From a virus, in UHGV virus genome UHGV-0066790: a DNA stretch of 47,800 nt, one strand, 5' to 3'. Of the stretch, positions 4,677-47,726 are shown in pieces. The translations under genes were made by a program, and so were the position numbers. The notes under the pieces were generated by a model, which was given only the letters and a program-made list of their open reading frames with translations, ran no database searches and had not been told where the DNA came from. Each line of letters begins with the position of its first letter. The first letter of the stretch is position 1.

Positions 4677-4990
4677 ACACCACAGTACAAAAAGCCATTC
4701 AAGATGGGATGAAAGCAACTGGGATAACACAAACTGAACTAGCCATTGTTTTACGCAGCAGAGCGCGTGCTTCCGAGATTATTAATGGGAAAAGGGATCT
4801 AAGGAGGACTGAACTGCTTGTACTTTCATATCTGCTCCATATCCCGCTTGAAACGCTGATGCCTCCTCTTAGTGAAGAGGATAAGCTGCATATCGACTCG
4901 CTTATTGCTTGGGAGAGAAAACTTCAAGAGACAAGATATATAAAAAAAAGAGCTTCTAAACGGAGTAAGAAATCATGTCCGAAGAACTGA
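4673..4990 (+). CDS. XRE-type helix-turn-helix DNA-binding protein
   Basis: HTH signature GITQTELAIVLRSRARASEIINGKRDL. Confidence 0.55.
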   Translation: MNTTVQKAIQDGMKATGITQTELAIVLRSRARASEIINGKRDLRRTELLVLSYLLHIPLETLMPPLSEEDKLHIDSLIAWERKLQETRYIKKRASKRSKKSCPKN

Positions 4991-5848: not shown

Positions 5849-6343
5849 ATGCGAAGACCCATCAACCCCGTAATCCCGTACCCGCACGAGGCCATCCAGC
5901 ACACTCGCTGTGTTCTGGCCCTGTCCATGATCACCGTGGCGATTTCTTTCCTCAAGCCGGAAATGCTGGCGCAGCTTGGCGACCTTGGAAAGCAGGTCGA
6001 GAAGGTCAACCGCTGGATCGACCGATGTGCGGACGACACGCAGAAGCGCAGACTCTCCGCAGGCGCGAAGCGAGATCTGGATGCCCGGTTCCATATCCTT
6101 GCCGGGCATGTCGGGGACATTCAGGCCGCTGCCGGGGACGCTTCCCGTTGGACGCAATGGGGCGCCGGGATGTGGGCCGGGCTGACCTTTCTTGAGGACT
6201 GCCGGAACACTTGCCCCGCCTACTTCCAAGGCCTTCACTGGCACAACATGCTCAAGACGCTGACCACGCTGTGCAATGCGCTCGAAAAGGTCGACCCGCA
6301 GATAGCAGAGATTGGGACGCGGGTGTACGAGCGGGCCGCGTAG
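5849..6343 (+). CDS. Hypothetical protein
   Basis: ATG at 5849 preceded by AAGAGGAGAAACGAC. 164 aa with a hydrophobic N-terminal segment. Confidence 0.5.
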   Translation: MRRPINPVIPYPHEAIQHTRCVLALSMITVAISFLKPEMLAQLGDLGKQVEKVNRWIDRCADDTQKRRLSAGAKRDLDARFHILAGHVGDIQAAAGDASRWTQWGAGMWAGLTFLEDCRNTCPAYFQGLHWHNMLKTLTTLCNALEKVDPQIAEIGTRVYERAA

Positions 6344-6359
6344 GATGAAAGGAGAAAGG

Positions 6360-6572
6360 ATGGAAACGACAATCTCGGAAATCCGCTCAATCGTACAGCG
6401 GCGTCGGGAGTTAGAGATTGAAGACCAACGTCTCTACCAACGGTTTCTCGAACTGCTCGAACTCAATCAGGGGGCTAGAAAATCTTCACGCGATACGCTA
6501 TCCCTCAAAGCAGGGAAGGCGTTTTTTGCTGACGTGAAAAGGAAATCCCATGAGCGTAGCAAAGCGCGGTGA
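6360..6572 (+). CDS. Small coiled-coil protein (possibly excisionase or regulator)
   Basis: ATG at 6360 after AAAGGAGAAAGG. Immediately upstream of int and overlapping it. Confidence 0.35.
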   Translation: METTISEIRSIVQRRRELEIEDQRLYQRFLELLELNQGARKSSRDTLSLKAGKAFFADVKRKSHERSKAR

Positions 6573-7608
6573 CGGCAGATGGGCCGTCAAGTTCAAGGAT
6601 GAGGAGGGGCGCTGGAGACAGCGCTCTTTCCGTACTGAGGAAGATGCCCGGCAGTTCGATGCGGATTGCCAGTATGATGCGGTGGAAAACACACGCTTGA
6701 CGCTGTTAGAGGCGGTGCTGGTGTACTTAAAAAACACCGAACACGCCGAGAAGACCGTAGGGATTTATGAGTTCATTGTGTGCGGGCATGATCGAAAGAA
6801 TGGGGAACACAGAGAGGGGCCAGCGGAGTTCCTTGCAAACAGATTCGTGGATACATTGACTCGTCGTGACCTCGAAACTGTACGTGAGCGGTGCAGGAAT
6901 GACGGCCTCTCAACAGCAAGTATCAATATCTATGTCGGAAAGATCAAGGCTGCACTCAGTTGGTGCGTTGAACAAGACTTACTCCATGAAAACCCTTGGG
7001 AAAAATATCGACAACTCCCCGGCGTAAGAAACAAGCCACGGACAGGAACATTGGAAGACTTCCACAAACTCTTTCCTGTGCTCCCACCGTGGCTTCAATG
7101 GGCAGCAAAAACAGCCATTGCCCTATGCTTACGTCCCGGCGTGTCCGAACTTTTCCGATTGGAATGGTCGGCATTCGACTGGAAGGCTAGAACCGTGAGC
7201 GTTTACATGCCCAAAGTAGATAGCACCAAAATGGTATTTCCACCAGAGGAATATCTTCAGGAGGCCTGGGTACGCTACCAAGATGATGCGATAAACGGAC
7301 AAAGTTTGGTTTGTAGAAATAGAAAGGGAGGACGTGTGAATAAAGGGCTTTATGAGATTGCATGGAGGCGGGCTTGCCGAAAGGCCGAAGTGTCTATGCC
7401 TATGTATGCCCTGCGACATATCGCCGCGTCCGAGATGCTTTCAAGAGGCGTGGACATCGCCGCAATAGCTGCGCAGCTTGGGCACAAAGATATTACCACC
7501 ACAGGAATTTTCTACACACACGCTCTTGCCTCTTCCCAACGTCGAGCTGCGGCCGCACTCTCTTCTTGCACCAATTTGGTGCAGATTGGTGCGGCAAATA
7601 GCATCTAA
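6550..7608 (+). CDS. int: Tyrosine site-specific integrase
   Basis: C-terminal catalytic region ALRHIAASEMLSRGVDIAAIAAQLGHKDITTTGIFYTH (R...HxxR...Y) plus an N-terminal SAM-like domain. Confidence 0.85.
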   Translation: MSVAKRGDGRWAVKFKDEEGRWRQRSFRTEEDARQFDADCQYDAVENTRLTLLEAVLVYLKNTEHAEKTVGIYEFIVCGHDRKNGEHREGPAEFLANRFVDTLTRRDLETVRERCRNDGLSTASINIYVGKIKAALSWCVEQDLLHENPWEKYRQLPGVRNKPRTGTLEDFHKLFPVLPPWLQWAAKTAIALCLRPGVSELFRLEWSAFDWKARTVSVYMPKVDSTKMVFPPEEYLQEAWVRYQDDAINGQSLVCRNRKGGRVNKGLYEIAWRRACRKAEVSMPMYALRHIAASEMLSRGVDIAAIAAQLGHKDITTTGIFYTHALASSQRRAAAALSSCTNLVQIGAANSI

Positions 7609-7720
7609 AATAAATATTATCAATAAGTTATGTAAAAACTTTGCTTTTTCCGCGAAAAAGCACATACATAATTTATTCCAATAAGTAACGAACATCCTGC
7701 ACCAAACAGCTTGGTGCAGA
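7570..7720. promoter_or_regulatory. Candidate attP / integrase-binding region
   Basis: TTGGTGCAG(A) occurs at about 7576, 7587 and 7711, with an inverted copy TGCACCAA at 7698. These flank an AT-rich 90-bp stretch directly downstream of the int stop. Confidence 0.35.
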
Positions 7721-7781
7721 CGGCAAAAAGCGTCTTCCCAACGCCTCAAAAAAGCGAGCATCGGTATGCTGTGTGAATGCG

Positions 7782-7822
7782 AAAAACCCCCTCTCGGTTC
7801 GCGCCGGGAGGGGGTTTTTTTT
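7782..7822. terminator. Bidirectional rho-independent terminator
   Basis: Hairpin CCCCCTCTCGGTTCGCGCCGGGAGGGGG with AAAAA before and TTTTTTTT after. It separates the convergent int (+) and tail operon (-). Confidence 0.65.
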
Positions 7823-7828
7823 GTATCT

Positions 7829-8059
7829 TCAATCCGACTTCTTCGCCACGAATCGGATCTCATCCCGGTGTTCTGGCAACCATCTGCACTTGTGCAGGCA
7901 CCACCACGGAGTGATGATGAACCGACCATCAGCTTTCGCTTTCCTGTCGGGATGAGCACCCGACACGGCACAGTCCAGAGAACATAACATCAGGGCTTGG
8001 ACGCGCTCACCGTGTGGGCAACGTAAGTTTTCCTCTTCTTCGGGCATGGGTAGTGGCAT
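7829..8059 (-). CDS. Small Cys/His-rich protein at the end of the tail operon
   Basis: Excellent RBS AAAAAAGGAGGAAGGCC then ATG. 76 aa with a C..H...C..C...H...C..C pattern. Confidence 0.45.
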   Translation of the reverse strand: MPLPMPEEEENLRCPHGERVQALMLCSLDCAVSGAHPDRKAKADGRFIITPWWCLHKCRWLPEHRDEIRFVAKKSD

Positions 8060-8111
8060 GGCCTTCCTCCTTTTTTCTAAAGAGTCTAGCCATGCCTACG
8101 ATTTTTGCAAA

Positions 8112-8510
8112 TCACGGCTCTACAGGCCACGGACACGCCGGATCATCCGGCCCATTCCACGGAAAGCCCAGTTGTTCGGGCAGATCACGCAACGCTTGGC
8201 GGTACACCTTGATCTCTTCAAGCTTTTCTTGTGAGAGCGGATAATCCGACATGACAAGGTAATCAGTCTCAGCAATACGTTTATTACGCTCGGCGCGTAC
8301 GCGAGCCGCGAGATCTTCCTGCGTCGGTACGGGAGGGACATAAGGCTGTTCCTCGGTCACGCATTCGGGGTGCGCCTCGGCGTAAGCATCCACTTCATCC
8401 CACTCCTGTGCATATTCGGCGGAACAGGGGTAAACATGATAGGGCATTCCGTTTTTCGTGATGACGTATGAATCGTCAAAAATCCGATGAATAATGTGAG
8501 AATAATCCAT
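8112..8510 (-). CDS. Tail fiber assembly protein (Tfa/gpU/gpG-like chaperone)
   Basis: C-terminal ...ETDYLVMSDYP...YRQALRDLPEQLGFPWNGPDDPACPWPVEP matches the conserved Tfa C-terminus. Immediately downstream of the tail fiber gene. Confidence 0.7.
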   Translation of the reverse strand: MDYSHIIHRIFDDSYVITKNGMPYHVYPCSAEYAQEWDEVDAYAEAHPECVTEEQPYVPPVPTQEDLAARVRAERNKRIAETDYLVMSDYPLSQEKLEEIKVYRQALRDLPEQLGFPWNGPDDPACPWPVEP

Positions 8511-8519
8511 TTTTTACTC

Positions 8520-9656
8520 CTACTTTGCGATCTTGATGCAGTTTGCTAGGAACTGCACTTCGCTTGTCACCGTAGCCCCCCCAGCGTATACACCTACAAA
8601 ACCTCCAGAAACGCCTGCGTTTGTCGCGATAACTAGCCATGATCCCCCGGCGGGAAGCGTAAAAGAGGTTACGGAAGAGAAGGTTTGGGTCGCGTATACG
8701 CGCATATCGGCAATGCCAGCACTAACGGCATATGCTGCTTCGCACTCAACAGACGCCCTTGTCCCTGCCTGTGTTAAAAAAGAAAAAACGCCATTACTTT
8801 GTAATGCTAAGATGCCGGAATTTCGATTGAGCCAATGGAATCCGATCGCGGGCGCATATGCTATGTCCGATTGCGCGATACCGACCGCGTCGTTTTCTCG
8901 TATTTCAAGAGCACTCGTACTATATCGGGAGGAAGGACTAGGATTATATGTTCCACGAAGGCCGCTGATGCGGCCGGTCATAGCTCCTCCAGACAGAGGC
9001 AGCCTCGCGTTTGCCACAGTCAAAGCGTTGTCCGCCGCGGCTTGTGCCGTTTCCGCCGCAGTGATCCCGGTGCTTCCCCGATCATAAGCCAGTTTGACCG
9101 CTGCAGCCGATGCAGCCGTCGTCGAATCTGTCGAGCTCACGCTGTCGGTCAGCTTCGCCGCGAGAGTCACGTCAGCGGAGAGCGGCCCGCCGCCAGTGAG
9201 CCCCGTTCCGGCGATGACCCTCCGCGAATCTGGAACAAAGTCGCCGGAGACAAAAGATGCAAGCGAAACCCAGTACGCGCGGTTTGCTTGCTGTGCAGGG
9301 TCTTTTGCTCCCACGCCGGACACATCTGGCCCGGAAGGTTGCAACGCGATGTACTCGACATCATCACTACCTTTGACATGAGAGCCCGTGATATAGTTCA
9401 GCGTATCTTGCCACGGGTAGACGCATCCGGATTGTTGGAAAAAGGCGTGTTGACCAAGCAGGTTGAAAAGCGCGTTCATCCATGAACGTTCAACCATGAC
9501 GCCGCCCGCGTCCGGGTCGACCTGCGTGATGAACGGAAAGAGATCTCGGAAAGAGGGAATACCTTGACCCGTGGGGGTCGTTTCAGGGATCTGCACGGTA
9601 TCCGCTGCATATCCCAAGACGTTGGGCATGATGCTAGGCGTTGAGGGAATAGGCAT
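8520..9656 (-). CDS. Tail fiber protein
   Basis: 378 aa with the collar motif VIAGTGLTGGGPLSADVTLA and LPLSGGAMTGRISGL. Ser/Thr/Ala-rich shaft. Confidence 0.75.
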   Translation of the reverse strand: MPIPSTPSIMPNVLGYAADTVQIPETTPTGQGIPSFRDLFPFITQVDPDAGGVMVERSWMNALFNLLGQHAFFQQSGCVYPWQDTLNYITGSHVKGSDDVEYIALQPSGPDVSGVGAKDPAQQANRAYWVSLASFVSGDFVPDSRRVIAGTGLTGGGPLSADVTLAAKLTDSVSSTDSTTAASAAAVKLAYDRGSTGITAAETAQAAADNALTVANARLPLSGGAMTGRISGLRGTYNPSPSSRYSTSALEIRENDAVGIAQSDIAYAPAIGFHWLNRNSGILALQSNGVFSFLTQAGTRASVECEAAYAVSAGIADMRVYATQTFSSVTSFTLPAGGSWLVIATNAGVSGGFVGVYAGGATVTSEVQFLANCIKIAK

Positions 9657-23278: not shown

Positions 23279-23635
23279 ATGATAACCATCACCACAGCCA
23301 ACAACGAAACAACTCTTGAAAACGACAAGGCTTTCTGTGCATATCGTATCGAAACAGAAATCGATTTTGATGAAGATGGTTATGAAGTGGACGGAGAGCA
23401 ATATGTGCTCATCGAAAAGCTTTTTGTTCCCTCAGAGAATCGCGGAAACGGCATTGCCCGCCGCCTTCTTCGTGAAGCCGTCTCTCACGCTCGCGCTACT
23501 TACCCCGGAATGGCGATTCGGTTGGTAGCTGAACCTCTGGATGCCGATACAGATATGGATCGGCTGGTGGCCTTTTATGAAAGCGAAGGTTTTGATGTGA
23601 TCGAAGCTGGCGAAATCGTAGTAATGGAACACTAA
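23279..23635 (+). CDS. Small GNAT-fold acetyltransferase-like protein
   Basis: 118 aa with an acetyl-CoA motif-A-like segment ENRGNGIARRLLREAV. Low GC relative to the flanks. Confidence 0.5.
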   Translation: MITITTANNETTLENDKAFCAYRIETEIDFDEDGYEVDGEQYVLIEKLFVPSENRGNGIARRLLREAVSHARATYPGMAIRLVAEPLDADTDMDRLVAFYESEGFDVIEAGEIVVMEH

Positions 23636-23655
23636 ACAGAACAAAGGAGTAAGAC

Positions 23656-23826
23656 ATGACCCGCTATTCTATCCTGCTCACGACTGGCACAACGGGAACC
23701 ATCGATACCGAACAGCATCTTGAAGAGGGCATGGAAGTAGTCATCACCTTGCACGATGAAAACGGAAACAGAACGCAGGAAACCGGACTCATCGCTGAAA
23801 TTCTTGACGAAGAATTTTTAGGGTAA
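23656..23826 (+). CDS. Small hypothetical protein (56 aa)
   Basis: RBS AAAGGAGTAAGAC then ATG. MTRYSILLTTGTTGTIDTEQHLEEGMEVVITLHDENGNRTQETGLIAEILDEEFLG. Below the track's 60-aa cutoff. Confidence 0.4.
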   Translation: MTRYSILLTTGTTGTIDTEQHLEEGMEVVITLHDENGNRTQETGLIAEILDEEFLG

Positions 23827-23848
23827 TCGAATTAAAAGGAAAAACACC

Positions 23849-24349
23849 ATGAAGCTGTACCACGGAAGCTTGATTGAACATCTGGCTATCTCTAACTCAG
23901 GAACAGGGTTAGGGTATAACTTCGGTGCGGTGTTCTTTGCCCGTACTTACGGACATGCAAAGGAATACGGAAATTACGTCTACCAGTGCGAAATAGACAT
24001 CGAGGACATCTTCTTGAACGAGGATCTCCCGTATCTTGAAGATGGCGCTGCTGGAACGGCTCTACGTGAAGTTATGGCAGAGCGCGGTATAGACGAAAAG
24101 TATTTTGATCTCTGCTGGTATGCCGTGGTTGAAGAGAAAATTGGTTATCAAGATGAAGACTGGGTAAACCTCCTCAACATGGATGACGATGACGCAAGTT
24201 GGGAGGCTCAGGCCATGCGGATCGCCTTTGCCCGTAAGCTCGGCTTCAAGGCTGTTGAAATGGATGACGAATGCGGCAGCATTGCGGTTCTTCCCGAGTT
24301 CATAAAGCTGGAAGCGGCAACGGAGGAATACGATGAAGAGGAAGACTAA
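23849..24349 (+). CDS. LYHGS-motif protein (DUF3990-like putative ART-fold) with acidic tail
   Basis: N-terminus MKLYHGS...GYNFGAVFFARTYGHAKEYG resembles the DUF3990 signature. The C-terminus is Asp/Glu-rich (MDDDDASWE...EEYDEEED). Confidence 0.45.
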   Translation: MKLYHGSLIEHLAISNSGTGLGYNFGAVFFARTYGHAKEYGNYVYQCEIDIEDIFLNEDLPYLEDGAAGTALREVMAERGIDEKYFDLCWYAVVEEKIGYQDEDWVNLLNMDDDDASWEAQAMRIAFARKLGFKAVEMDDECGSIAVLPEFIKLEAATEEYDEEED

Positions 24350-25724
24350 GATAGACATCGACGATCTTATCGATTTCAGTTCAAAGCTGGTGAACTCGAA
24401 TTCCAGCGTCGGTATTCGCTTGTCGTCGGGTGCCGCGCTCGCCCTTCCGTACCTGTCCACGAGGACATGTCTTGCGGCAGGGATTTCTATGCCGCTGGAT
24501 ACGGCAAACGGGGCCAAGGATGTGGGAAAGGTAAGTGCTCTATACAAAAAACTCGAAGAAGGGGAGGAAGGAGAGAAAGCAGATACAGAGGCGGCATTGA
24601 AGAAAATCCGTAAAACAGGATTTGCCAGAAAAACAGAGTCTGTCGACAGACGGATTCGTCAACTGCTCATCCCTAAAGACGTACCCTCTGGGTATGTCTC
24701 TTTGTCTCCCCTCCCCTCCATTGGACTTTCCGTTTTGCTGTTAGGAGCCGTTACAAGGCATAATCAAGATGTCTTTTCAAAAAAGAAGGAAGGTATCAAA
24801 ATTCGACGGGCACATCTCGCTTTGGGCGGGGCAAACCCTCAGAATCTAGGATACGCTGCGTCCAAAAAGGCGATACAATATCCTGTTTTTCTTTCTACAC
24901 CCAAATCCGTGCGCGGAAATGCCAGCCGTCAGGCGTCAGGAAAGGGAACTTACCTGATCCTTTCCAATCTCTTTGTGCAAACGGCAAACATCTTGACGAA
25001 TTATACTATGCTCAACGGCGCGCCCCTCTTTGCAGCATGGGGGATGGGACATGCACTGGAGCGCGAGATGCATGGTCCCAAAGTTACCGGAGTATGCCTT
25101 GTTGTGCATAGCATCGAACCCCTTGGGGAGCATGAAACCGCTATTTTCGAGCCTAGCCAAAGAGTAGGAGCGGCTTTTACTTTTGAAAAATCCCGTAACG
25201 GGAGCGACTACGCAAAAGGCTCCACACATCTCTCTTTGCAGCCCGGTGCAACGGGGCATATACGGGTGAGCCTTATCTTTGAACTGTCGGAAGCCCTGCA
25301 TTCCGTACCGAACGCCGTGGATCTTTTCTTGAACTTCGGAAAGTTCTCCGGTGGGCTGATCACTTCATACGACGCCCCGGCTTTGCATGATGACCGCTCT
25401 ACGCTTCTAGAGTGCATTCCCGCCGGGAAAGTTGTTTTGGATCGGCGCGACGTTATGAGCCCTGGAAACCCCATTGAACAGCTTGTAACCGCGATAGGAA
25501 CGTACAGCGGAAAATGGCTGTCCGCAACGAATATCGGTTTTTCAGCAATCACAGACTTTCAAGTTCGCGGAGGGGCACGGAACGGGTGCCTCCATGCTTT
25601 TGCGGAGCCGCTGATCGGCATTACAGAATACGTCTCTACTGAAAAGAGGATACACGGGTATTTCTGGCGCAGCCAGTGGGAAGAAGATAGCTTTTTGATG
25701 AGGGGAGATTCAACAAATGAATGA
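24333..25724 (+). CDS. Large protein of unknown function (463 aa)
   Basis: Overlaps the upstream stop by 17 nt and the downstream start by 8 nt (ATGAATGA). No recognisable catalytic motif. Confidence 0.55.
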   Translation: MKRKTKIDIDDLIDFSSKLVNSNSSVGIRLSSGAALALPYLSTRTCLAAGISMPLDTANGAKDVGKVSALYKKLEEGEEGEKADTEAALKKIRKTGFARKTESVDRRIRQLLIPKDVPSGYVSLSPLPSIGLSVLLLGAVTRHNQDVFSKKKEGIKIRRAHLALGGANPQNLGYAASKKAIQYPVFLSTPKSVRGNASRQASGKGTYLILSNLFVQTANILTNYTMLNGAPLFAAWGMGHALEREMHGPKVTGVCLVVHSIEPLGEHETAIFEPSQRVGAAFTFEKSRNGSDYAKGSTHLSLQPGATGHIRVSLIFELSEALHSVPNAVDLFLNFGKFSGGLITSYDAPALHDDRSTLLECIPAGKVVLDRRDVMSPGNPIEQLVTAIGTYSGKWLSATNIGFSAITDFQVRGGARNGCLHAFAEPLIGITEYVSTEKRIHGYFWRSQWEEDSFLMRGDSTNE

Positions 25725-29400: not shown

Positions 29401-30183
29401 CTAGTCTCCAAATTCAGGAATAACGGCCCGGTACGTGCATTGGCACCCCGGAAGCTCACCGCAAAGCACTTTGCGCTTCACGTCAGAGTCGTAAAGACCT
29501 TCCGTGATGACGAACTTTTTCCCATTCATGAGCTGGTGGGTATGGCGGCTCGTTTTCTTTCCCGGCACATGTACCCAGATGCCTTCGGTGATGCCGAGTT
29601 CCTTGTCCTGCACCCGCTTAAGGGCCTCGGTCGCCTTATTGGACTGGTCGCGGGCAATGAATTCTGCCCGGCGCCGGGTGATCTCGTACCGCTTGTGCAG
29701 TTCGTCGGCGAGGAACTCCACGTCCCGGCCCATGCTGGCGGAACGCTGTACTAGCCCCGTTACTTCCGTGAAATAGTGCTGCGGAATGGATTTGATGAGA
29801 TTGACATTTTCCTCGAAGAGGGCCCGCGCCACGTCGCTCATGGCCCTGCTTCCCTCCATCCTCACCGTGAAGCCCGCATCTTTGAGGGCCTGCCTCATGC
29901 TGGCTTCCGTGCGCCGCCTCGTACTGCCCACGAACTCCCGTGCAAAACTCTCCGCGCTTTCCCTCCACCGCTTCGTCCAGTACCGGAACAGGCTCTTGAG
30001 GCGGTCTTGTAGGTCACTCGCCGGGGACGCATCCTGTGCTATGCGGGTTTCCTGCTTCCTGTACTCGGCGCGCAGCCACCACACGACGGAACGCTGCATC
30101 TCGTCGAGAAGCGACACCAGCCGCTTCCGGTATTTCGCCCGGATGCCCGCGTTGGGCTTGATGGCGCGGATGACCTTAGCCAT
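29401..30183 (-). CDS. Head morphogenesis protein (Mu gpF / SPP1 gp7 family)
   Basis: RRAEFIARDQSNKATEALKRVQDKELGITEGIWVHVPGKKTSRHTHQLMNGKKF matches the Phage_Mu_F pattern. Confidence 0.7.
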   Translation of the reverse strand: MAKVIRAIKPNAGIRAKYRKRLVSLLDEMQRSVVWWLRAEYRKQETRIAQDASPASDLQDRLKSLFRYWTKRWRESAESFAREFVGSTRRRTEASMRQALKDAGFTVRMEGSRAMSDVARALFEENVNLIKSIPQHYFTEVTGLVQRSASMGRDVEFLADELHKRYEITRRRAEFIARDQSNKATEALKRVQDKELGITEGIWVHVPGKKTSRHTHQLMNGKKFVITEGLYDSDVKRKVLCGELPGCQCTYRAVIPEFGD

Positions 30184-31720
30184 AGACGGCCCCTGCCTTG
30201 TCCACGTCGTCGATGTCGGGCATCAAGCCCCCTTCCCCGGCTTCCGGCAGGGCGTCGGGCATTCCGTTGCCCTGCGGCACTTCCGCCGGGTCTATGTCGG
30301 AGAAGCCGCTGTCCGGGTCACTGGCAAGGGACTGCCGGGCCTCTTCCTGAGAGATGATGTCCCGATCCATGTAGACGGCGATGGTGTCGGCCTTGGTCTT
30401 CTGGAGCGTCGCAAGGGCTGCCCTGTCCTCTTCGCCGAGGGGCGCGAAGTCGAAAGTCACGGAAGGGTCGATGGTTCCGCGCAGGTAGAGCTGAATACAG
30501 TCGAGCGCCTTCTTGATGCCGTCGCGCAGGACTTTCTCCTGCTGGCTCCTGACATGGTCGTAGTAGTTGCGGATGTCCGATTCGCCCGTGGCATTGAACC
30601 CTGACGGGCTGATGCCAAGCAGCTTGACCGCCGGAGTGCGGTTCAGGGCTGCGAGAATTTCAAGGGACTGGCGCACGATGTCGGTCACGCCGGAAAGCGG
30701 GGTTTCCAGCTTGACCACGTCTTCTGATTCTTTGTCGACGGCAAGCACGCCGTCATTGGTCATGGACTGGATCATGTACCGGATGCGTGCATCGATCTGT
30801 GCCGTGCCCCCCGACGCGTACAGGATGTCTTCCATCTTCGTCTTGAAGACGGTCAGCGAAAACTTGGTCAGCAGCCGGGCTTCGGCGGCGCGGCATTCCT
30901 GAAAATGCAGGACGTAATCCCAGAGGATCTGAGCTTGTGGGATGCCCAAAAAATTGTAGGCTGGACGGAGCAGCACCGGGCATTCGTTCGCAACCAATCG
31001 GATGAGGCGCGAGGCGTGCACCCGCTGCCCGAGCACCCACCACCAGCGCGGGCGGAAGTAGTCCGGCTCAAGCGGCGAAAGGCTGTTGTAGTCTCCGGGG
31101 AAGACGTTCACGGGGTCGATGACGACGAAGCGCAGCACGCCGCCGGGCCTGAGTTCGGCGGAATACGGGCTGACGTTCAGCGGGCGTTCCAGCTCTTCCC
31201 CGACTGCTCCGGTGTCGATGAAAAGGAAGGCCCCGCCCTCGTACCCCACAAGCTCGGTCGCCTCATGGAAAAGGCGTTGCAGTGCGAACCTCTTGCACGC
31301 CTGCGCAAGGTCGGTGAGCAATGACTCGTCGCCGCCCTCCCCTTCGCGCTTGAACTCAATCCATGCTCGGGTCATGTCGTCGGATACCGTCTCGACGCAG
31401 GCACGGATCAATCCATTCTGGGCAAGGTTCTGGAGGACGCCGTAGCCCATGAATTGCGGCGCAATCCCGACCCCAAGCTCAAGCGAGTGCTGGAGCAGGG
31501 AATAGACGCCGGAATCCGCAAGCCGCGCATCCATCGCAAGCTGCACCTCTTCGGGCGCGCCGAGCGTCTTCGCAGGACCGTACAACCGGCTGATGTCGTC
31601 GGGCGTAGGTGGCAAAGACTGAGCAAGGCCGCCGCGCACGTCCGGGGAGAGATTCAGACGGCGCGACGGTTGCACTTGAGGTATGGAGGTGGCGTGTCGA
31701 TAAGTGCGCTTCTTGCTCAT
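30176..31720 (-). CDS. Portal protein
   Basis: 514 aa, directly upstream of the Mu-F-like gene. Confidence 0.6.
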   Translation of the reverse strand: MSKKRTYRHATSIPQVQPSRRLNLSPDVRGGLAQSLPPTPDDISRLYGPAKTLGAPEEVQLAMDARLADSGVYSLLQHSLELGVGIAPQFMGYGVLQNLAQNGLIRACVETVSDDMTRAWIEFKREGEGGDESLLTDLAQACKRFALQRLFHEATELVGYEGGAFLFIDTGAVGEELERPLNVSPYSAELRPGGVLRFVVIDPVNVFPGDYNSLSPLEPDYFRPRWWWVLGQRVHASRLIRLVANECPVLLRPAYNFLGIPQAQILWDYVLHFQECRAAEARLLTKFSLTVFKTKMEDILYASGGTAQIDARIRYMIQSMTNDGVLAVDKESEDVVKLETPLSGVTDIVRQSLEILAALNRTPAVKLLGISPSGFNATGESDIRNYYDHVRSQQEKVLRDGIKKALDCIQLYLRGTIDPSVTFDFAPLGEEDRAALATLQKTKADTIAVYMDRDIISQEEARQSLASDPDSGFSDIDPAEVPQGNGMPDALPEAGEGGLMPDIDDVDKAGAVYG

Positions 31721-31753
31721 GTGCCCATAATGCTACGAGCCAAAAAGAAAACA

Positions 31754-31770
31754 CACCGTGAACAAGGTTC
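31754..31770 (-). promoter_or_regulatory. 17-bp late-operator motif, copy A (CACCGTGAACAAGGTTC)
   Basis: About 34 nt upstream of the portal start codon. Confidence 0.5.
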
Positions 31771-31856
31771 GGGGGGCTTGGCTGTGGGACACCTTTCATA
31801 TTGTATCAATATAGATTAATCTATATATACATGGATACCTTTAGGGAGGTATCCGC

Positions 31857-32603
31857 ATGTACAAAAGCATCATGGTGTTTCTGCTGGCCGCGCTGGTTAT
31901 GACGTCCGAGGCGCAGGCCGCGGGCAACGAATGGAACGATTCGTTCAGCAAGGCCAAGAAGACGCTGGAACGGCAGGTCTATTATGACCATCGGATCACG
32001 CTCTACTGCGGGGCGGCGTTCGACGAGAAGAAGAACGTCACCCTGCCGGAGGGTTTTACTGCCGCGAAGCACGAGAAGCGGGCCGGGAAGGTGGAATGGG
32101 AACACGTGGTCCCCGCCGAGAACTTCGGGCAGGCTTTTCCGGAGTGGCGCGAGGGGGACGCACAGTGCGTGGACGCGAAGGGGAAGGCATTCAAGGGCCG
32201 CAAGTGCGCGGAAAAGGTGAACCGGGAATACCGCCTCATGCAAAGCGACATGTACAACCTCTATCCGGCCATCGGTGCGGTCAACGCCCTGCGCCAGAAT
32301 TACAACTTCCAGATGCTGCCCGGCGAGGAGCCGGATTTCGGAAGCTGCGGGATGAAGATCGCCGACCGCAGGGCCGAGCCGCCCGTCCGGGCGCGGGGAC
32401 AAATTGCCCGGACCTACAAGTATATGGCCGACGCCTACGCCCCGCGCTACCGCATGAGCCGCCAGCAGACGCAGCTCATGGACGCATGGGACAAGATGTA
32501 TCCGGTTGATGCGTGGGAATGCACGCGGGCCAGACGTATTGAAAGACTACAAGGTAACGAGAACCCTTTTGTGAAGGAAAGATGTCAAGAAGCAGAACTC
32601 TAA
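31857..32603 (+). CDS. endA: Secreted endonuclease I (EndA family)
   Basis: Signal peptide MYKSIMVFLLAALVMTSEAQA. Blocks VEWEHVVPA, SDMYNLYPA, EPPVRARGQIARTYKYM and SRQQTQLMDAWDKMYPVDAWECTRARRIERLQGNENPFVKERCQ closely match E. coli EndA. RBS AGGGAGGT. Confidence 0.85.
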   Translation: MYKSIMVFLLAALVMTSEAQAAGNEWNDSFSKAKKTLERQVYYDHRITLYCGAAFDEKKNVTLPEGFTAAKHEKRAGKVEWEHVVPAENFGQAFPEWREGDAQCVDAKGKAFKGRKCAEKVNREYRLMQSDMYNLYPAIGAVNALRQNYNFQMLPGEEPDFGSCGMKIADRRAEPPVRARGQIARTYKYMADAYAPRYRMSRQQTQLMDAWDKMYPVDAWECTRARRIERLQGNENPFVKERCQEAEL

Positions 32604-32617
32604 CTCTTTACATTCAT

Positions 32618-35600
32618 TTATATTCTCCTTCCCATACGTGGCTGATTGAGGATGGCGGGGTTGATGCACATGGGCCGCTTGGTATCGAAATCACGCAGCG
32701 CCTGTGTTGTGGCGTCCACTTGGTCGTCGTGGGGCGCACCGGGGAACTGTGTCAGTTCCGCGACGTACTCCCGCGCCCACGGGCAATGCTCAGGGTGCGG
32801 GAGCAGGACGTTCCCGGCCTCGAAGAACGTGGTCACGGCATGGGCCCGGGCCGTCTTGCTGCCGTCCGGCTCCACGGGGATGATACCGGGCACAGCATGT
32901 TTCAGCGCGTCGATAACCGCCGGGCCGTTGGCCTTATCCTCCACCAGCTTACGGGCTGCGCCGGGCCATTTAGCGGCGAGCGCCCGGAACGCGGCGACCG
33001 TATCCGTAAATCCCATGCGCCGCCGGACCTGATCGAGGAGGTAGCGGTCGGCCCCCTTGCGGCCCCACACCTGCCCCACAACAAAGTCGGTATCGTCGCC
33101 GTCTTTGAACGTCATATCCCACGAGATAAGGAGCTGGTCGAACTGCTCCGGAAGGTCTTTGGGGAGCCAGAACCGCAGCCACTCGGATTTGAATATGGCG
33201 CCGCCGTCTGGCGTAGGCCGCTGCTGGTACAGGGCTTCCCAGTCGCGTGTGCCGAGGGCTTTCTTAATGGCAAGAAGCTGCTCCAACGGGTAGCGTTCAG
33301 GGTGTAAGGCTTCACCTGCCCTACGGTGCAGCTCGTCTTCCGTTGCGATGGCGGGGAAGTTCACTACGCGCCAGTGGTCGCCCTCCCCCCGTGCGGCGGC
33401 CTCAAGCAGCCGCCCTGAGAGGTCAGCCATGTGCCAGCGAGTGTTGATGATGAGCACCCCTCCACCGGGCGCGAGGCGCGTGTACAGCGTGGACGTGTAC
33501 CAGTCCCAGACGTTCTGGCGGATGGTCGGGGAATCGGCGGACGCCCGGTCCTTGAACGGGTCGTCGATGATAGCGCAGTTGTGGACAAGGACACCGCCGG
33601 CAAAGAAGTTCTGATTACGTGCTACTTGGATATCAACAAAACGGCGTGCTGTTCCGTATATTCGCGCAATGTTGGCAATATGTCCCGCTTGTACTGTTCT
33701 TCTTTCATGCCGTGCAAGATCCTGTGGCACTTGCTGCACAGCGTAATCAAGTTTGTCGCAACATTGTTGATCGGAATAAGATCCATGTGATGAACCTCCA
33801 ACCGTGTTTCCTCCTTGCCACATAGAACACAACGATGCTGATCCCTGTCTAAAATCAAAGGCCGAAACTGTCGGAATGCCCGCGCAGAGTGCACCTGTTC
33901 CCGCAAGGGAGTCATGCCGTGACGGTATCGGGGATTCCCCTTGCCAGACATCAGAATAGAGTGTGCAATTTCGCTGCACCGCTTGCTGCAATACTTGGCA
34001 AAAATACCGCGTCCCCTGTGGGCAGACATAAAGAGCTTGTTGCAGATAGGGCAAATTTTTTCTCTGGGCTGATGCTCGACAGGGACCTGGCTCGGCTTCT
34101 TGAATTTTGCGGCACATTCCGGGCAGGTCTTTGCCCCTTTGGTTCTCCCTGTGTGTTTGATGATCCGTCCACAACCGGGGCACGTCTTGCTGTTCTTGAC
34201 TGCATGATGGGCACAAGAATGTTCCTTGCAGCAGTAGAAATCTTTCATCCCCTTCCTGATATTTTTGGCCACCACATAAGCCGGCCTCACAAACTCCAGG
34301 CCACACCAGGCACAAGATAGGATCACCCGTGGCAATTGATGATGCAGGGGTATATTCCCCCCGTGAAAAGATCGGATGGTTTCCTGTAACTTCAAGAACT
34401 CTGCCAAGGGCATCGCGTAATCGGTAGCTTTCTTCTGCATATCGATCCTTTACCGCTATCACTATATCAGTTTCAATTTCCCCCGTTTGATGATTGTATG
34501 ATAGCACGTTATCCCCGACTTGTAGGGTCTCGATAGCGCGATCTCCGTCAGGAGTCGCAATTTGTGTTCCAATGACAACGCATTCCGCACCCATGCCCGT
34601 GATGCCGCCGCCCACGCCAGCGGAACGGTAGCAGCCAGCGTGCCCCACCACCTCGAATATGTCCGAATTGCGGAGGTAGGAGCCGTTCCCGACTGTGCGG
34701 ATGTTCTTGCCGTACAGCGCCGTGCCGGGAAAAAGTTCCCGATATTCCGGGCTGTCGATGACGCGCTGCACGTCGCGGTTCATGCGCGAGGACAGGTCGG
34801 CGGCGTAGCTTGTGGAGATAATGGAGAGATCGGGGTAACGGCCCAAGGCGTAGGCCGGGAAACGGCGGGAGGCCAGCTCGCTATTGTGGGTTATCGTAAG
34901 GTGTTTGCCAACTAAATATAAGCCATCTGGACTATCCACCTGAATACAATTCCCCATTTTAGGCGACTCTAGCGCTCGTACACATTTGATGGATACGCGC
35001 CGACGCAGAGAAGAAAACGTTTTATTAACTTTTTTCCGTTCAAGTCTGCACGGGACAACTACACCGGAAAAGAAAAATGACACCACATAAACCTGTGACT
35101 TATTTTTAATCGTTCTTTCCCGATTATCTAGTGCTGGGATATTTGTATGCGCTACAAACCCGCATAGCATGGCCAATTCTTCTACATCATGCGCTAACAG
35201 CTCATTGGATGTTGTAAAACGATATCTGTTTGTCTTTCTATCAAAATGACCATCCGTATCAATAAGTCCAGCAAGCAAGTCAAGCCTGTTTTCTAGGCTA
35301 TCATGCTTGTACTCATTAGGAATATGTTTATTTTTTAGCAGATCAGCATCTTTTAGAGCCTGCGAAAATATATTTCTTCTATTTTTCACGCCGCTGGCAA
35401 ATGAAAAAGTTTCAACTCCAGTATCTCTATGCACCCATGTTCCAGTTATTGGCACACCTAGTCGTTCAAACTCCATTTTGACGACACAAGCGTCATCAGG
35501 AGCCATGTTTATTCTGGGCGCGATTGACGTTCCATCACCTAACCACACGCCCAAAACGTATGGCGGGATAACGTGTTCTACGGCAGGCCATTGGGGAGCA

Positions 35601-36151
35601 TCAGCTGTGTCCACCTGATACAAATACCTGTGCCCTCTGGTGTCTGGGATACCGCTATCCAGCTTCCTAAGCGCCTTAGTTTTTTTGCTTGGCTCCACAA
35701 AGTATCGTGTCTCAACTGTTCTATATCCGGGTTTAGTCCTGTCATACACCCGCCACTCATGATCAAGGTGCACATCTATTATGTCGCCATTGGTAAAAAC
35801 AACAGAATGAGTGGCAAAATTTTTCTCGCCCACAGCAACAACCCTCACAGGTTTGCCACTTGGGTGAAATACATAATCACCAACCTTAAGCGCACCATGA
35901 GTTTTCCACCCATCAACCGTCAAAACAGGAGTATCATCAGCGCACAGTTTCCCATGTCGCGGCGGCATGGTCAGCATGAGGCGCGGGGAACGTCCGGCCA
36001 CGACATCGGCAAGGAAGGCGTCCAGCTCGGAACAGATTTCCTCATGCACCCATCCCATCTTGTAGCCGGGCATGGTGTAGCGCACGAAGGCCGCGAGGCA
36101 ACTCCGGGCCAGCGCCTTCCTGATGTCGGCAAGGATGGATGGGCTACTCAT
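32618..36151 (-). CDS. terL: Terminase large subunit interrupted by two inteins
   Basis: Exteins: residues 1-69 (…MPPRHGKL, P-loop), 424-523 (…GHAGCYRSAGVGGGITGMGAE), 859-1177 (CAIIDDP... nuclease domain with HDDQVDATTQAL). Confidence 0.8.
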   Translation of the reverse strand: MSSPSILADIRKALARSCLAAFVRYTMPGYKMGWVHEEICSELDAFLADVVAGRSPRLMLTMPPRHGKLCADDTPVLTVDGWKTHGALKVGDYVFHPSGKPVRVVAVGEKNFATHSVVFTNGDIIDVHLDHEWRVYDRTKPGYRTVETRYFVEPSKKTKALRKLDSGIPDTRGHRYLYQVDTADAPQWPAVEHVIPPYVLGVWLGDGTSIAPRINMAPDDACVVKMEFERLGVPITGTWVHRDTGVETFSFASGVKNRRNIFSQALKDADLLKNKHIPNEYKHDSLENRLDLLAGLIDTDGHFDRKTNRYRFTTSNELLAHDVEELAMLCGFVAHTNIPALDNRERTIKNKSQVYVVSFFFSGVVVPCRLERKKVNKTFSSLRRRVSIKCVRALESPKMGNCIQVDSPDGLYLVGKHLTITHNSELASRRFPAYALGRYPDLSIISTSYAADLSSRMNRDVQRVIDSPEYRELFPGTALYGKNIRTVGNGSYLRNSDIFEVVGHAGCYRSAGVGGGITGMGAECVVIGTQIATPDGDRAIETLQVGDNVLSYNHQTGEIETDIVIAVKDRYAEESYRLRDALGRVLEVTGNHPIFSRGEYTPASSIATGDPILCLVWPGVCEAGLCGGQKYQEGDERFLLLQGTFLCPSCSQEQQDVPRLWTDHQTHRENQRGKDLPGMCRKIQEAEPGPCRASAQRKNLPYLQQALYVCPQGTRYFCQVLQQAVQRNCTLYSDVWQGESPIPSRHDSLAGTGALCAGIPTVSAFDFRQGSASLCSMWQGGNTVGGSSHGSYSDQQCCDKLDYAVQQVPQDLARHERRTVQAGHIANIARIYGTARRFVDIQVARNQNFFAGGVLVHNCAIIDDPFKDRASADSPTIRQNVWDWYTSTLYTRLAPGGGVLIINTRWHMADLSGRLLEAAARGEGDHWRVVNFPAIATEDELHRRAGEALHPERYPLEQLLAIKKALGTRDWEALYQQRPTPDGGAIFKSEWLRFWLPKDLPEQFDQLLISWDMTFKDGDDTDFVVGQVWGRKGADRYLLDQVRRRMGFTDTVAAFRALAAKWPGAARKLVEDKANGPAVIDALKHAVPGIIPVEPDGSKTARAHAVTTFFEAGNVLLPHPEHCPWAREYVAELTQFPGAPHDDQVDATTQALRDFDTKRPMCINPAILNQPRMGRRI
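33578..34582 (-). mobile_element. Intein 2 (Hint domain) in the terL Walker B site
   Basis: Begins CVVIGTQIATPDG, block B TGNHPIF, ends FVDIQVARNQNFFAGGVLVHN before Cys. The central region in the terL frame is low-complexity. Confidence 0.6.
33622..34440 (-). CDS. HNH endonuclease with Zn-ribbon repeats, encoded in a different frame inside intein 2
   Basis: Multiple CxxC pairs. C-terminal HNH motif CVLCGKEETRLEVHHMDLIPINNVATNLITLCSKCHRILHG. Frame is +1 relative to terL. Confidence 0.65.
   Translation of the reverse strand: MQKKATDYAMPLAEFLKLQETIRSFHGGNIPLHHQLPRVILSCAWCGLEFVRPAYVVAKNIRKGMKDFYCCKEHSCAHHAVKNSKTCPGCGRIIKHTGRTKGAKTCPECAAKFKKPSQVPVEHQPREKICPICNKLFMSAHRGRGIFAKYCSKRCSEIAHSILMSGKGNPRYRHGMTPLREQVHSARAFRQFRPLILDRDQHRCVLCGKEETRLEVHHMDLIPINNVATNLITLCSKCHRILHGMKEEQYKRDILPTLREYTEQHAVLLISK
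34883..35944 (-). mobile_element. Intein 1 (Hint + double LAGLIDADG homing endonuclease) in the terL Walker A site
   Basis: Begins CADDTPVLTVDGW, contains LGVWLGDGTS and LLAGLIDTDGHF, ends ...VGKHLTITHN before Ser. Confidence 0.7.
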
Positions 36152-46991: not shown

Positions 46992-47145
46992 TTCCAACGT
47001 CTACATGAAGCACGCCAAGGTATCACTGGAACGGCCTAAAAAGGTTGACCGGGCTAGAGTTGCTGCGGTCATCATCTTTATGGCTGTCATGCTCGGTATC
47101 TGCATTCTTCCACAGATCTTGTACGGGATGGAGGCCATGCGATGA
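46988..47145 (+). CDS. Small membrane protein (52 aa)
   Basis: ATGA coupling on both sides. TM helix AAVIIFMAVMLGICILPQIL. Confidence 0.35.
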
Positions 47146-47726
47146 ATCAAGAGGAACTTGACCAATTCATATCGTGGCTTCTGGCTCACGGTTCGGAAGT
47201 GCTTGCCCCAACGAATCCCTATGAACTCTTGAGGTTTACCACCCAAGACGGCGTGGCAATCATCTTCAAGGACGCTGACGGGGAAATCACGAAAGACAGG
47301 AATGGGGCTTTCGAGGTTCTCCGGTGCTTTCGGAAAAAACGCAACTGGAACGGAGGCGGAAAGAGGGAACGGAAACCCCGCAGTGCTTCAAGACGCAGGT
47401 TGCTGGTCAACTCAATCGCAAAACGCGACGGGTGGAACTGCATGTACTGCGGAGCAACGCTGACGCTTGAGACAGCAACGATAGAACATATCGTTCCCCT
47501 TGCCGGAAATGGGCTTGATGACCTGCGGAACATGACTCTCGCCTGTGCGGAGTGCAACCGCGAGGCGGGGCATCTGAGTGCCCGGCAAAAGGTGGAACTG
47601 GCTATGAAAAAGAGAGGGGATGTGATGAGCCCGGAATGCGACATGTACGACGCGGAGAGGGAAGGCGTAGACCGCACGATTCCCGATGAACCAGAATACT
47701 ACGGCCCCGACAAGGGGCCTTTTTAA
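47142..47726 (+). CDS. HNH endonuclease
   Basis: CMYCGATLTLETATIEHIVPLAGNGLDDLRNMTLACAECNREAGH HNH motif. Confidence 0.7.
   Translation: MNQEELDQFISWLLAHGSEVLAPTNPYELLRFTTQDGVAIIFKDADGEITKDRNGAFEVLRCFRKKRNWNGGGKRERKPRSASRRRLLVNSIAKRDGWNCMYCGATLTLETATIEHIVPLAGNGLDDLRNMTLACAECNREAGHLSARQKVELAMKKRGDVMSPECDMYDAEREGVDRTIPDEPEYYGPDKGPF

Follow-up and report, generated by a model that had tools for sequence, protein, structure and literature searches.

The stretch of DNA analysed here, referred to throughout as the window, is the 47,800-nucleotide virus genome UHGV-0066790, and the subject of this report is a predicted secreted deoxyribonuclease (DNase) gene of the Endonuclease I (EndA/Vvn/Dns) family that lies between its portal and large terminase genes. 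The interval 31721..32617 corresponds exactly to the gap from the start of the portal gene (30176..31720, - strand; Phage_portal_3, E 1.5e-80) to the stop of the large terminase gene (32618..36151, - strand; Terminase_6N/6C plus intein domains, 1177 residues long owing to two inteins). A single + strand open reading frame (ORF) is found inside it, at 31857..32603, which encodes the 248-residue precursor of the enzyme. The antisense placement between portal and terminase, proposed in an original prediction made from the letters alone, was confirmed by the gene map and by the contigs of related phages. Alignment with relatives whose junction is empty delimits a cassette at ~31773..32635 that comprises a leader, the DNase gene and ~30 nt at the terminase side, which replace the final ~5 terminase codons and bring a new stop. 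The segment 31721..31772 is the leader of the portal gene (- strand) and is conserved with or without the cassette.

The leader of the cassette contains an AT-rich stretch (31795..31835) with 19.5% G+C, against 56% for the window. Within it lies an 18-bp perfect palindrome, ATATAGATT followed directly by AATCTATAT (31809..31826), which is a candidate operator site of a regulator that binds as a dimer. It is followed by a predicted RNA hairpin (31828..31860, + strand) in which the Shine-Dalgarno sequence and the start codon are paired with the upstream leader, and a ribosome-binding site, AGGGAGG, could be read directly 7 nt ahead of the ATG (31843..31849, + strand). The earlier description of the gene as having its own ribosome-binding site and an AT-rich upstream region therefore holds. 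The low G+C content is confined to ~40 nt of the leader; the composition of the gene itself (G+C 0.60, and 0.787 at third codon positions) is like that of the neighbouring phage genes (0.62 and 0.783 for the portal gene), which fits a donor from the same genus.

The 248-residue protein matches the Pfam family Endonuclease_1 (PF04231) with 103.9 bits (cut-off 25; E 1.5e-29), and comparison by phmmer with five solved members of the family (Vvn, VcEndA and VsEndA) gave E values of 4.5e-50 to 4.3e-46 at 41-45% identity, the best match being Vvn (1OUO, E 4.5e-50); such values lie well outside what chance would give. It also belongs to phrog_6861 (E 3.7e-63), which the PHROGs database labels 'unknown function'. 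The AlphaFold2 model (predicted local distance difference test, pLDDT, 85.6; predicted template-modelling score 0.81) retrieved Vvn, VcEndA or VsEndA as all of its top seven Foldseek matches in the PDB (E ~1e-18), with target-normalised template-modelling scores of 0.88-0.91 and root-mean-square deviations of 1.7-2.2 Å, the eighth-ranked match having already an E value of 1.9 and nothing else being close. Residues His83, Glu82, Asn143 and Arg115 align with His80, Glu79, Asn127 and Arg99 of Vvn and do not vary among ten Bilophila copies or across an alignment of 43 sequences. The codons of Glu82 and His83, in the motif EWEHVVPA, are placed at 32100..32105 and that of Asn143 at 32283..32285 (both + strand). 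In Vvn we take His80 to be the general base, Glu79 and Asn127 to be ligands of the metal (Mg2+) and Arg99 to belong to the catalytic set. The DNA-bound Vvn chain 1OUP reads EWEAVVPA at the site where 1OUO has EWEHVVPA, and this alanine at the position of His83 is consistent with the assignment of the catalytic histidine.

A closer inspection of the N-terminus (MYKSIMVFLLAALVMTSEAQA, followed by AG) showed a basic n-region (MYK), a hydrophobic core of 13 residues with a Kyte-Doolittle 11-residue mean of up to 3.1, and the triplet A-Q-A just before residue 22. Homology to the mature Vvn chain starts only at residue 28-29, and pLDDT values fall below 50 at residues 1-3 and 11-20. This N-terminus fits a cleaved Sec signal peptide comprising residues 1-21 (31857..31919, + strand), as predicted heuristically from hydropathy and from the point at which homology starts. 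Thus, the EndA-type identity and the signal peptide put forward in the original prediction are supported by Pfam, solved-structure matches, alignment, model and Foldseek search.

The distribution of the gene was followed in 108 loci fetched by the portal alone, relatives being called close when their portal was at least 92% identical. The gene was present in 17 of the close relatives, truncated to a remnant in one (L063), absent from 12 and unresolved in three, and it was seen in one of the 75 distant relatives, these figures being counts of metagenome-derived viral contigs and not population frequencies. Five phages (L064, L066, L072, L073 and L076) with portals 95-98% and terminases 96-98% identical to those of the window have an empty junction of 62 bp in place of the gap of ~900 bp. 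They share with the window the 52 nt before the portal ATG (31721..31772), and their terminase is common to it up to ...QPR(I/M)G, from where the tail reads IGYRFR and stop in the empty-site phages versus MGRRI and stop in the window. In the distant relatives the spacing between terminase and portal is mostly 27-150 bp where both genes were found. The flanks had been described as two minus-strand late operons; given the 62-bp spacing in relatives that carry no insert, the cassette looks instead like an interruption of one otherwise contiguous late gene block.

The same junction holds other genes in other relatives: antirepressor-like genes with ORF6N or P22_AR_N domains, with or without the DNase gene and sharing a common C-terminal half; a SocA/Panacea-domain gene together with a 137-residue partner ORF; an antisense lipoprotein gene with a lipobox; and the tnpA and tnpB genes of an IS200/IS605 insertion sequence (IS) element. 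These alternative cargoes lie at 4818..7053 in L052, at ~6080..7053 in L056, L068 and L070, at 7103..7729 in L020 and at ~5920..7560 in L077. The presence and absence of the gene among near-identical phages, at a junction that can be empty or hold different cargo, establish that it is optional cargo (a moron) of a temperate phage of Bilophila wadsworthia, as had been suspected. The alleles themselves are more divergent than their surroundings, those of the window and of L007 differing at a synonymous distance (dS) of 0.35 although the phages are otherwise 98-99% identical, and two alternative 3' ends were observed (...ERCQEA(E/G)L and ...GPCRDDGLW). This divergence and the two ends suggest that recombination swaps the cassette at a higher rate than that at which its flanks diverge.

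Contigs from many human-gut metagenomes carry the exact DNase protein (58 index blocks of the metagenome collection, from at least six independent samples), always in the order portal (-), DNase (+), terminase (-), and a 94% variant occupies an identical setting between portal and terminase. A scan covering one genome per species located the phage in the type strain of B. wadsworthia, ATCC 49260, with a portal 98% and a DNase 97% identical at the same site, and a related phage in another Bilophila genome. The window contains an integrase gene (6550..7608) and shows a lambdoid module order, and two contigs of the same architecture and of ~47.8 kb, near the window length, come from separate samples; on these grounds it is most simply read as a complete temperate-phage genome. 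Of the earlier description as a prophage, the temperate nature stands, while integration is not demonstrable in this window. A free-standing HNH endonuclease gene (47142..47726, + strand; PF01844, E 1.8e-10) is placed at the right end of the window and would open the + strand block of early genes if the map were circular.

Close homologues were found in two other settings in Bilophila. In the first (L015) the gene is chromosomal, 84-87% identical, and neighboured by RecQ, major facilitator superfamily transporters and an amidohydrolase, and no phage gene lies within 8 kb of it. The RecQ encoded there shares 80% identity with the B. wadsworthia protein, which indicates that the organism is another Bilophila species. 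DNA homology between L015 and the window spans 31799..32577 and thus includes ~58 nt of leader, with the 18-bp palindrome ATATAGATTAATCTATAT (31809..31826) and the ribosome-binding region. On the simplest reading of this alignment, the phage would have acquired a Bilophila-type gene along with the regulatory leader belonging to it; that the transfer went in this direction is inferred. In the second setting a DNase 81-83% identical belongs to an unrelated Mu-like Bilophila prophage (GemA, Mor, Mu Gp27, Portal_Mu), and these are the most abundant homologues (variants in 521 and 190 index blocks of the metagenome collection), named 'endonuclease [Bilophila wadsworthia]' at NCBI. In the Mu-like loci (L016-L018 and L127-L132) the gene lies at 7001..7744 or 8001..8744, starts 12 nt after an HTH_3 repressor-like gene on the same strand and is divergent from the left flank, which contains AAA_22, a weak rve match, GemA and DUF3164. 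The N-termini of the Mu-like and chromosomal copies differ in sequence and are equally signal-like.

Homologues ~70% identical from Desulfovibrio (L134, a chromosome of Desulfovibrio falkowii, and L136) adjoin P22_AR_N or Bro-N, HSDR_N and HicB genes and an integrase fragment, and these surroundings look like accessory regions left by prophages. They were considered as a clean chromosomal reference and rejected for their antirepressor, Bro-N and integrase-fragment neighbours, which leaves L015 as the sole clean one. From the Mu-like and Desulfovibrio neighbourhoods we conclude that the family is habitually phage-associated in this bacterial group. A partner ORF that could act as inhibitor or immunity protein was sought beside the DNase gene in five contexts, where the neighbours proved mutually unrelated, the Mu-like repressor-like gene apart. 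The annotated phage collection contained no close relative and gave only Helicobacter prophage genes at ~30% identity and two Salmonella records of host origin.

The leader offers some indications as to when the gene may be expressed. The palindrome is present in a single copy in the window even when three mismatches are allowed (0 expected by chance). Its 16-bp core was found in 32 of the fetched loci of this phage lineage, all of them cassette-carrying where the junction could be read, was absent from L075, and occurs upstream of the chromosomal gene of L015 with one central change. An operator of the phage's own repressor was considered and is disfavoured by this single copy. Being single-copy in the phage yet common to the chromosomal gene, the palindrome suggests host-type regulation, and a host regulator appears the more likely ligand. 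The predicted hairpin has a folding energy of -15.1 kcal/mol (z -3.1; none of 200 shuffles as stable) and an equivalent one in L015 (7975..8003) of -17.6 kcal/mol (z -2.8), and the recurrence of the modelled structure in phage and chromosome hints at translational gating of the DNase. A consensus scan for intrinsic terminators over 31500..32900 on both strands returned none, and the portal gene must be expressed, so late transcription would cross the cassette on the opposite strand. The position of the Mu-like homologue next to a repressor-like gene also points to expression in the prophage state. Judging from this arrangement, expression is probably favoured in the prophage and damped during lytic growth.

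Taken as a whole, we consider it probable, though still a prediction, that the gene provides lysogens with an envelope DNase that destroys exogenous DNA; our confidence in the identity of the enzyme and in its status as cargo is much higher than in the whole chain. According to this model the gene would have entered the phage from a Bilophila-type genome along with its AT-rich region, palindrome and hairpin leader. It would be transcribed from the AT-rich leader, counter to the late genes and mainly in the quiescent prophage, possibly under a dimeric host regulator bound to the palindrome, with the hairpin gating translation. The protein would be exported to the periplasm, fold there with three disulfides and perhaps be released further. 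The enzyme is expected to be a Sec-exported, Mg2+-dependent, sequence-non-specific DNase that cuts free double-stranded DNA reaching the cell envelope or its surroundings. Two kinds of consequence would follow: less uptake of exogenous DNA (transforming, electroporated or otherwise incoming), and turnover of extracellular DNA in the biofilm matrix and in neutrophil traps or for nucleotide scavenging. In lytic growth, read-through from the late genes would yield antisense RNA over the cassette and probably damp the DNase. By analogy, the likely consequences are those described for the homologues of Vibrio and Campylobacter.

Several observations weigh against this model. The protein has six cysteines where Vvn has eight, two Vvn cysteine columns being lost jointly and one cysteine being relocated into a 13-residue insertion (approximately residues 101-113). 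However, eight cysteines mark the Vibrio enzymes and not the Pfam definition, so the six-cysteine protein is a variant within the family, with no ground for exclusion. The score against NCBIfam NF011716 (deoxyribonuclease I, the E. coli EndA equivalog) is 198.4 bits, below the cut-off of 372, and by this comparison the protein is a member of the Endonuclease I family and not a strict EndA orthologue. A consensus scan for sigma-70 promoters over 31500..32900 on both strands found none, although visual inspection of the leader brings out a possible TTGTAT-17-TATATA arrangement. As the predicted hairpin sequesters the ribosome-binding site and the AUG, the gene could be translationally silent in many conditions. 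The PADLOC defence models matched neither the DNase nor the Panacea-domain pair nor the lipoprotein of the junction. Finally, we know of no natural competence in Bilophila, and a transformation phenotype may not apply.

A more specialised role, as a dedicated barrier to rival mobile DNA, seems unlikely to us. The enzyme would in this case destroy the DNA of superinfecting phages or plasmids, or transforming DNA able to displace the prophage by recombination, and the occurrence of the DNase in two unrelated Bilophila prophage lineages, as well as the conflict-type cargo of the same junction (the SocA/Panacea gene with its partner and the antirepressor-like genes), would agree with it. Injected phage DNA, however, is usually protected by the tail or a channel on its way across the periplasm, and no role in phage defence is known for the periplasmic EndA of E. 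coli. The lack of a PADLOC match counts here too, as does the fact that natural competence is not established for Bilophila. In favour of the proposal, Campylobacter prophage DNases do block transformation (PMC4372405). It overlaps the broader model of an envelope DNase acting on exogenous DNA, which is a main point against it as a separate explanation.

Also improbable, in our judgement, is a function as a helper of the lytic cycle, whereby the DNase would be produced chiefly once the prophage is induced and set free by lysis to digest host chromosomal and extracellular DNA, lowering viscosity for dispersal, or to recycle nucleotides. The gene does lie in the middle of the late region, where late transcription could influence it for want of a terminator, and secreted prophage DNases of Streptococcus pyogenes have reportedly been proposed as lytic dispersal aids. 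Nevertheless, the gene runs opposite to the late genes, and late transcription would yield the wrong strand. Its leader is common to a non-phage chromosomal gene and is not repeated elsewhere in the phage, and the Mu-like homologue follows a repressor-like gene and not lysis or late genes.

That the gene is a functionless passenger in decay is very improbable. The remnant in L063 and the 12 close relatives devoid of the gene would be in line with such a fate. Pairwise ratios of non-synonymous to synonymous substitution (dN/dS) between DNase copies, calculated for forward-strand copies only, are nevertheless 0.06-0.10 (0.08 for pairs of phage alleles, 0.10 for comparison with the chromosomal copy and 0.07-0.08 for comparison with the Mu-like ones), and the gene is therefore kept by strong purifying selection. 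The catalytic residues and the six cysteines are retained in ten copies from three contexts, and none of the full-length copies examined has a disrupted ORF. A host gene split by the prophage, or an assembly chimera, which the close chromosomal homologues in another Bilophila species might have suggested, is refuted by phage sequence on both sides with clean boundaries from empty-site relatives and by the exact protein lying between the same portal and terminase in at least six independent samples, dozens of independent contigs and an isolate genome.

The model of an envelope DNase made by lysogens has some practical bearing on B. wadsworthia, a bile-associated, sulfide-producing gut pathobiont for which few genetic tools are known to us. 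Two of its common prophage lineages contain DNases of this family. If active, they would form a concrete and removable barrier to the introduction of DNA, and biofilm turnover, survival of neutrophil traps and nucleotide scavenging would become strain-variable with prophage content. Since this prophage is present in the type strain, ATCC 49260, with a 97% identical gene, the question can be tested directly. A wider proposal, which we put forward tentatively and regard as rather doubtful, is that two unrelated temperate phages of B. wadsworthia each recruited the same Bilophila-type secreted DNase on their own and that DNA destruction at the envelope is a general means of prophage self-preservation. 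If true, it would prevent transformation-mediated curing and the entry of rival DNA. Prophages could then be the main DNase source of this pathobiont, given their high frequency in human gut samples, and could add to its poor genetic tractability and to resistance against neutrophil DNA traps. The junction between terminase and portal is in addition a clean, well-delimited cargo hotspot and could be a source of more accessory genes.

Other features of this phage group were observed along the way. The terminase of the window (1177 residues, versus 487 in most relatives) contains two inteins on the - strand, at 34883..35947 and 33575..34588, one of LAGLIDADG and one of Hint type. Nested in the second is an ORF (33622..34440, - strand) for an HNH endonuclease of 272 residues (phrog_1271, E 1e-26), which runs in the +1 frame relative to terminase and intein, both frames being open. 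The homing endonuclease thus appears to be a separate overlapping gene and not an in-frame intein domain. A third intein site, near the terminase C-terminus (...DDQ/C...VLVHN/CDATTQ), is occupied in L074, L082 and L096 (~5990..7950) and in the distant L030, L111 and L120, again with an out-of-frame nested HNH ORF of 213-223 residues, an arrangement conserved from Bilophila phages to far more distant relatives of Sutterella/Parasutterella type. That such nested ORFs recur suggests that the dual coding is genuine. A second antisense cargo island (23279..25724, + strand), upstream of the major capsid gene, encodes an acetyltransferase (23279..23635), an AcrIF11-like ADP-ribosyltransferase (23849..24349) and a protein of 463 residues (24333..25724), all on the + strand. 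The latter resembles a fusion of the N-terminal part of Cas8f with a full Cas5f (PADLOC, E 2.7e-20 and 1.8e-21; Cas_Csy2, E 1.7e-10), has no other cas genes nearby and may be a mimic of a Cascade subunit acting with the anti-CRISPR enzyme. Relatives hold Bro-N or HSDR_N genes in place of this island.

Known relatives include Vvn of Vibrio vulnificus, Dns/VcEndA of V. cholerae, VsEndA and EndA of E. coli, with which the enzyme of the window shares the predicted fold, the catalytic His, Glu, Asn and Arg residues and a signal peptide. Those are, however, chromosomal housekeeping or accessory genes and not phage cargo, and the Vibrio enzymes lack the 13-residue insertion and contain eight cysteines instead of six. 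Deletion of dns in V. cholerae, a gene of the same superfamily, raises transformation efficiency and alters biofilms (PMC3212620), and the two extracellular nucleases of this species are reported to let it evade neutrophil traps (PMC3764145).

Of known systems, the nearest are the DNases borne by Campylobacter and Helicobacter prophages, above all dns (CJE0256) of the Mu-like element CJIE1, the likeness consisting in a DNase with a signal peptide as variable cargo of temperate phages. Campylobacter jejuni prophage DNases (dns of CJIE1 and others) are described as having signal peptides and preventing natural competence, and one of them, cje1441, has been shown to degrade biofilm (PMC4372405, PMC3995785). 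The family of CJE0256 was assigned here by way of two proxies. The DNase of a Mu-like prophage of Helicobacter apodemus (in a context of DUF935, Gam and DUF1018) matches PF04231 with E 6e-27 and is 32% identical to the window DNase (E 1e-24), and it is 88% identical, over a partial match, to the 'endonuclease I precursor' of Campylobacter phage CAM-P21. The Mu-like Bilophila prophage with its DNase homologue parallels these Mu-like prophages of Campylobacterota. The phage of the window differs from the CJIE1 type in its lambdoid layout, which is siphovirus- or myovirus-like and includes an integrase, and in the antisense position of the gene within the packaging and head block, and its enzyme is only ~30% identical to the Campylobacterota DNases and comes from another bacterial phylum.

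The junction itself resembles the hotspots of P2-like phages and P4-like satellites (PMC9122126), in which a fixed junction likewise receives alternative, unrelated cargo, the difference being that the junction is here that of terminase and portal and that the cargo consists of the DNase, antirepressor-like genes, the Panacea pair, the lipoprotein and the IS element. No paper came up in a full-text literature search for Bilophila wadsworthia in combination with endonuclease I, and a 2023 article in Nature that touches on Bilophila as well as prophages contains nothing pertinent. Secreted DNases as prophage cargo are already known from Campylobacter and Helicobacter prophages, and what is new is the host, the type of phage, the place of insertion, the evidence that the leader was captured along with the gene, and the acquisition of such a gene in parallel by two phage lineages of Bilophila.

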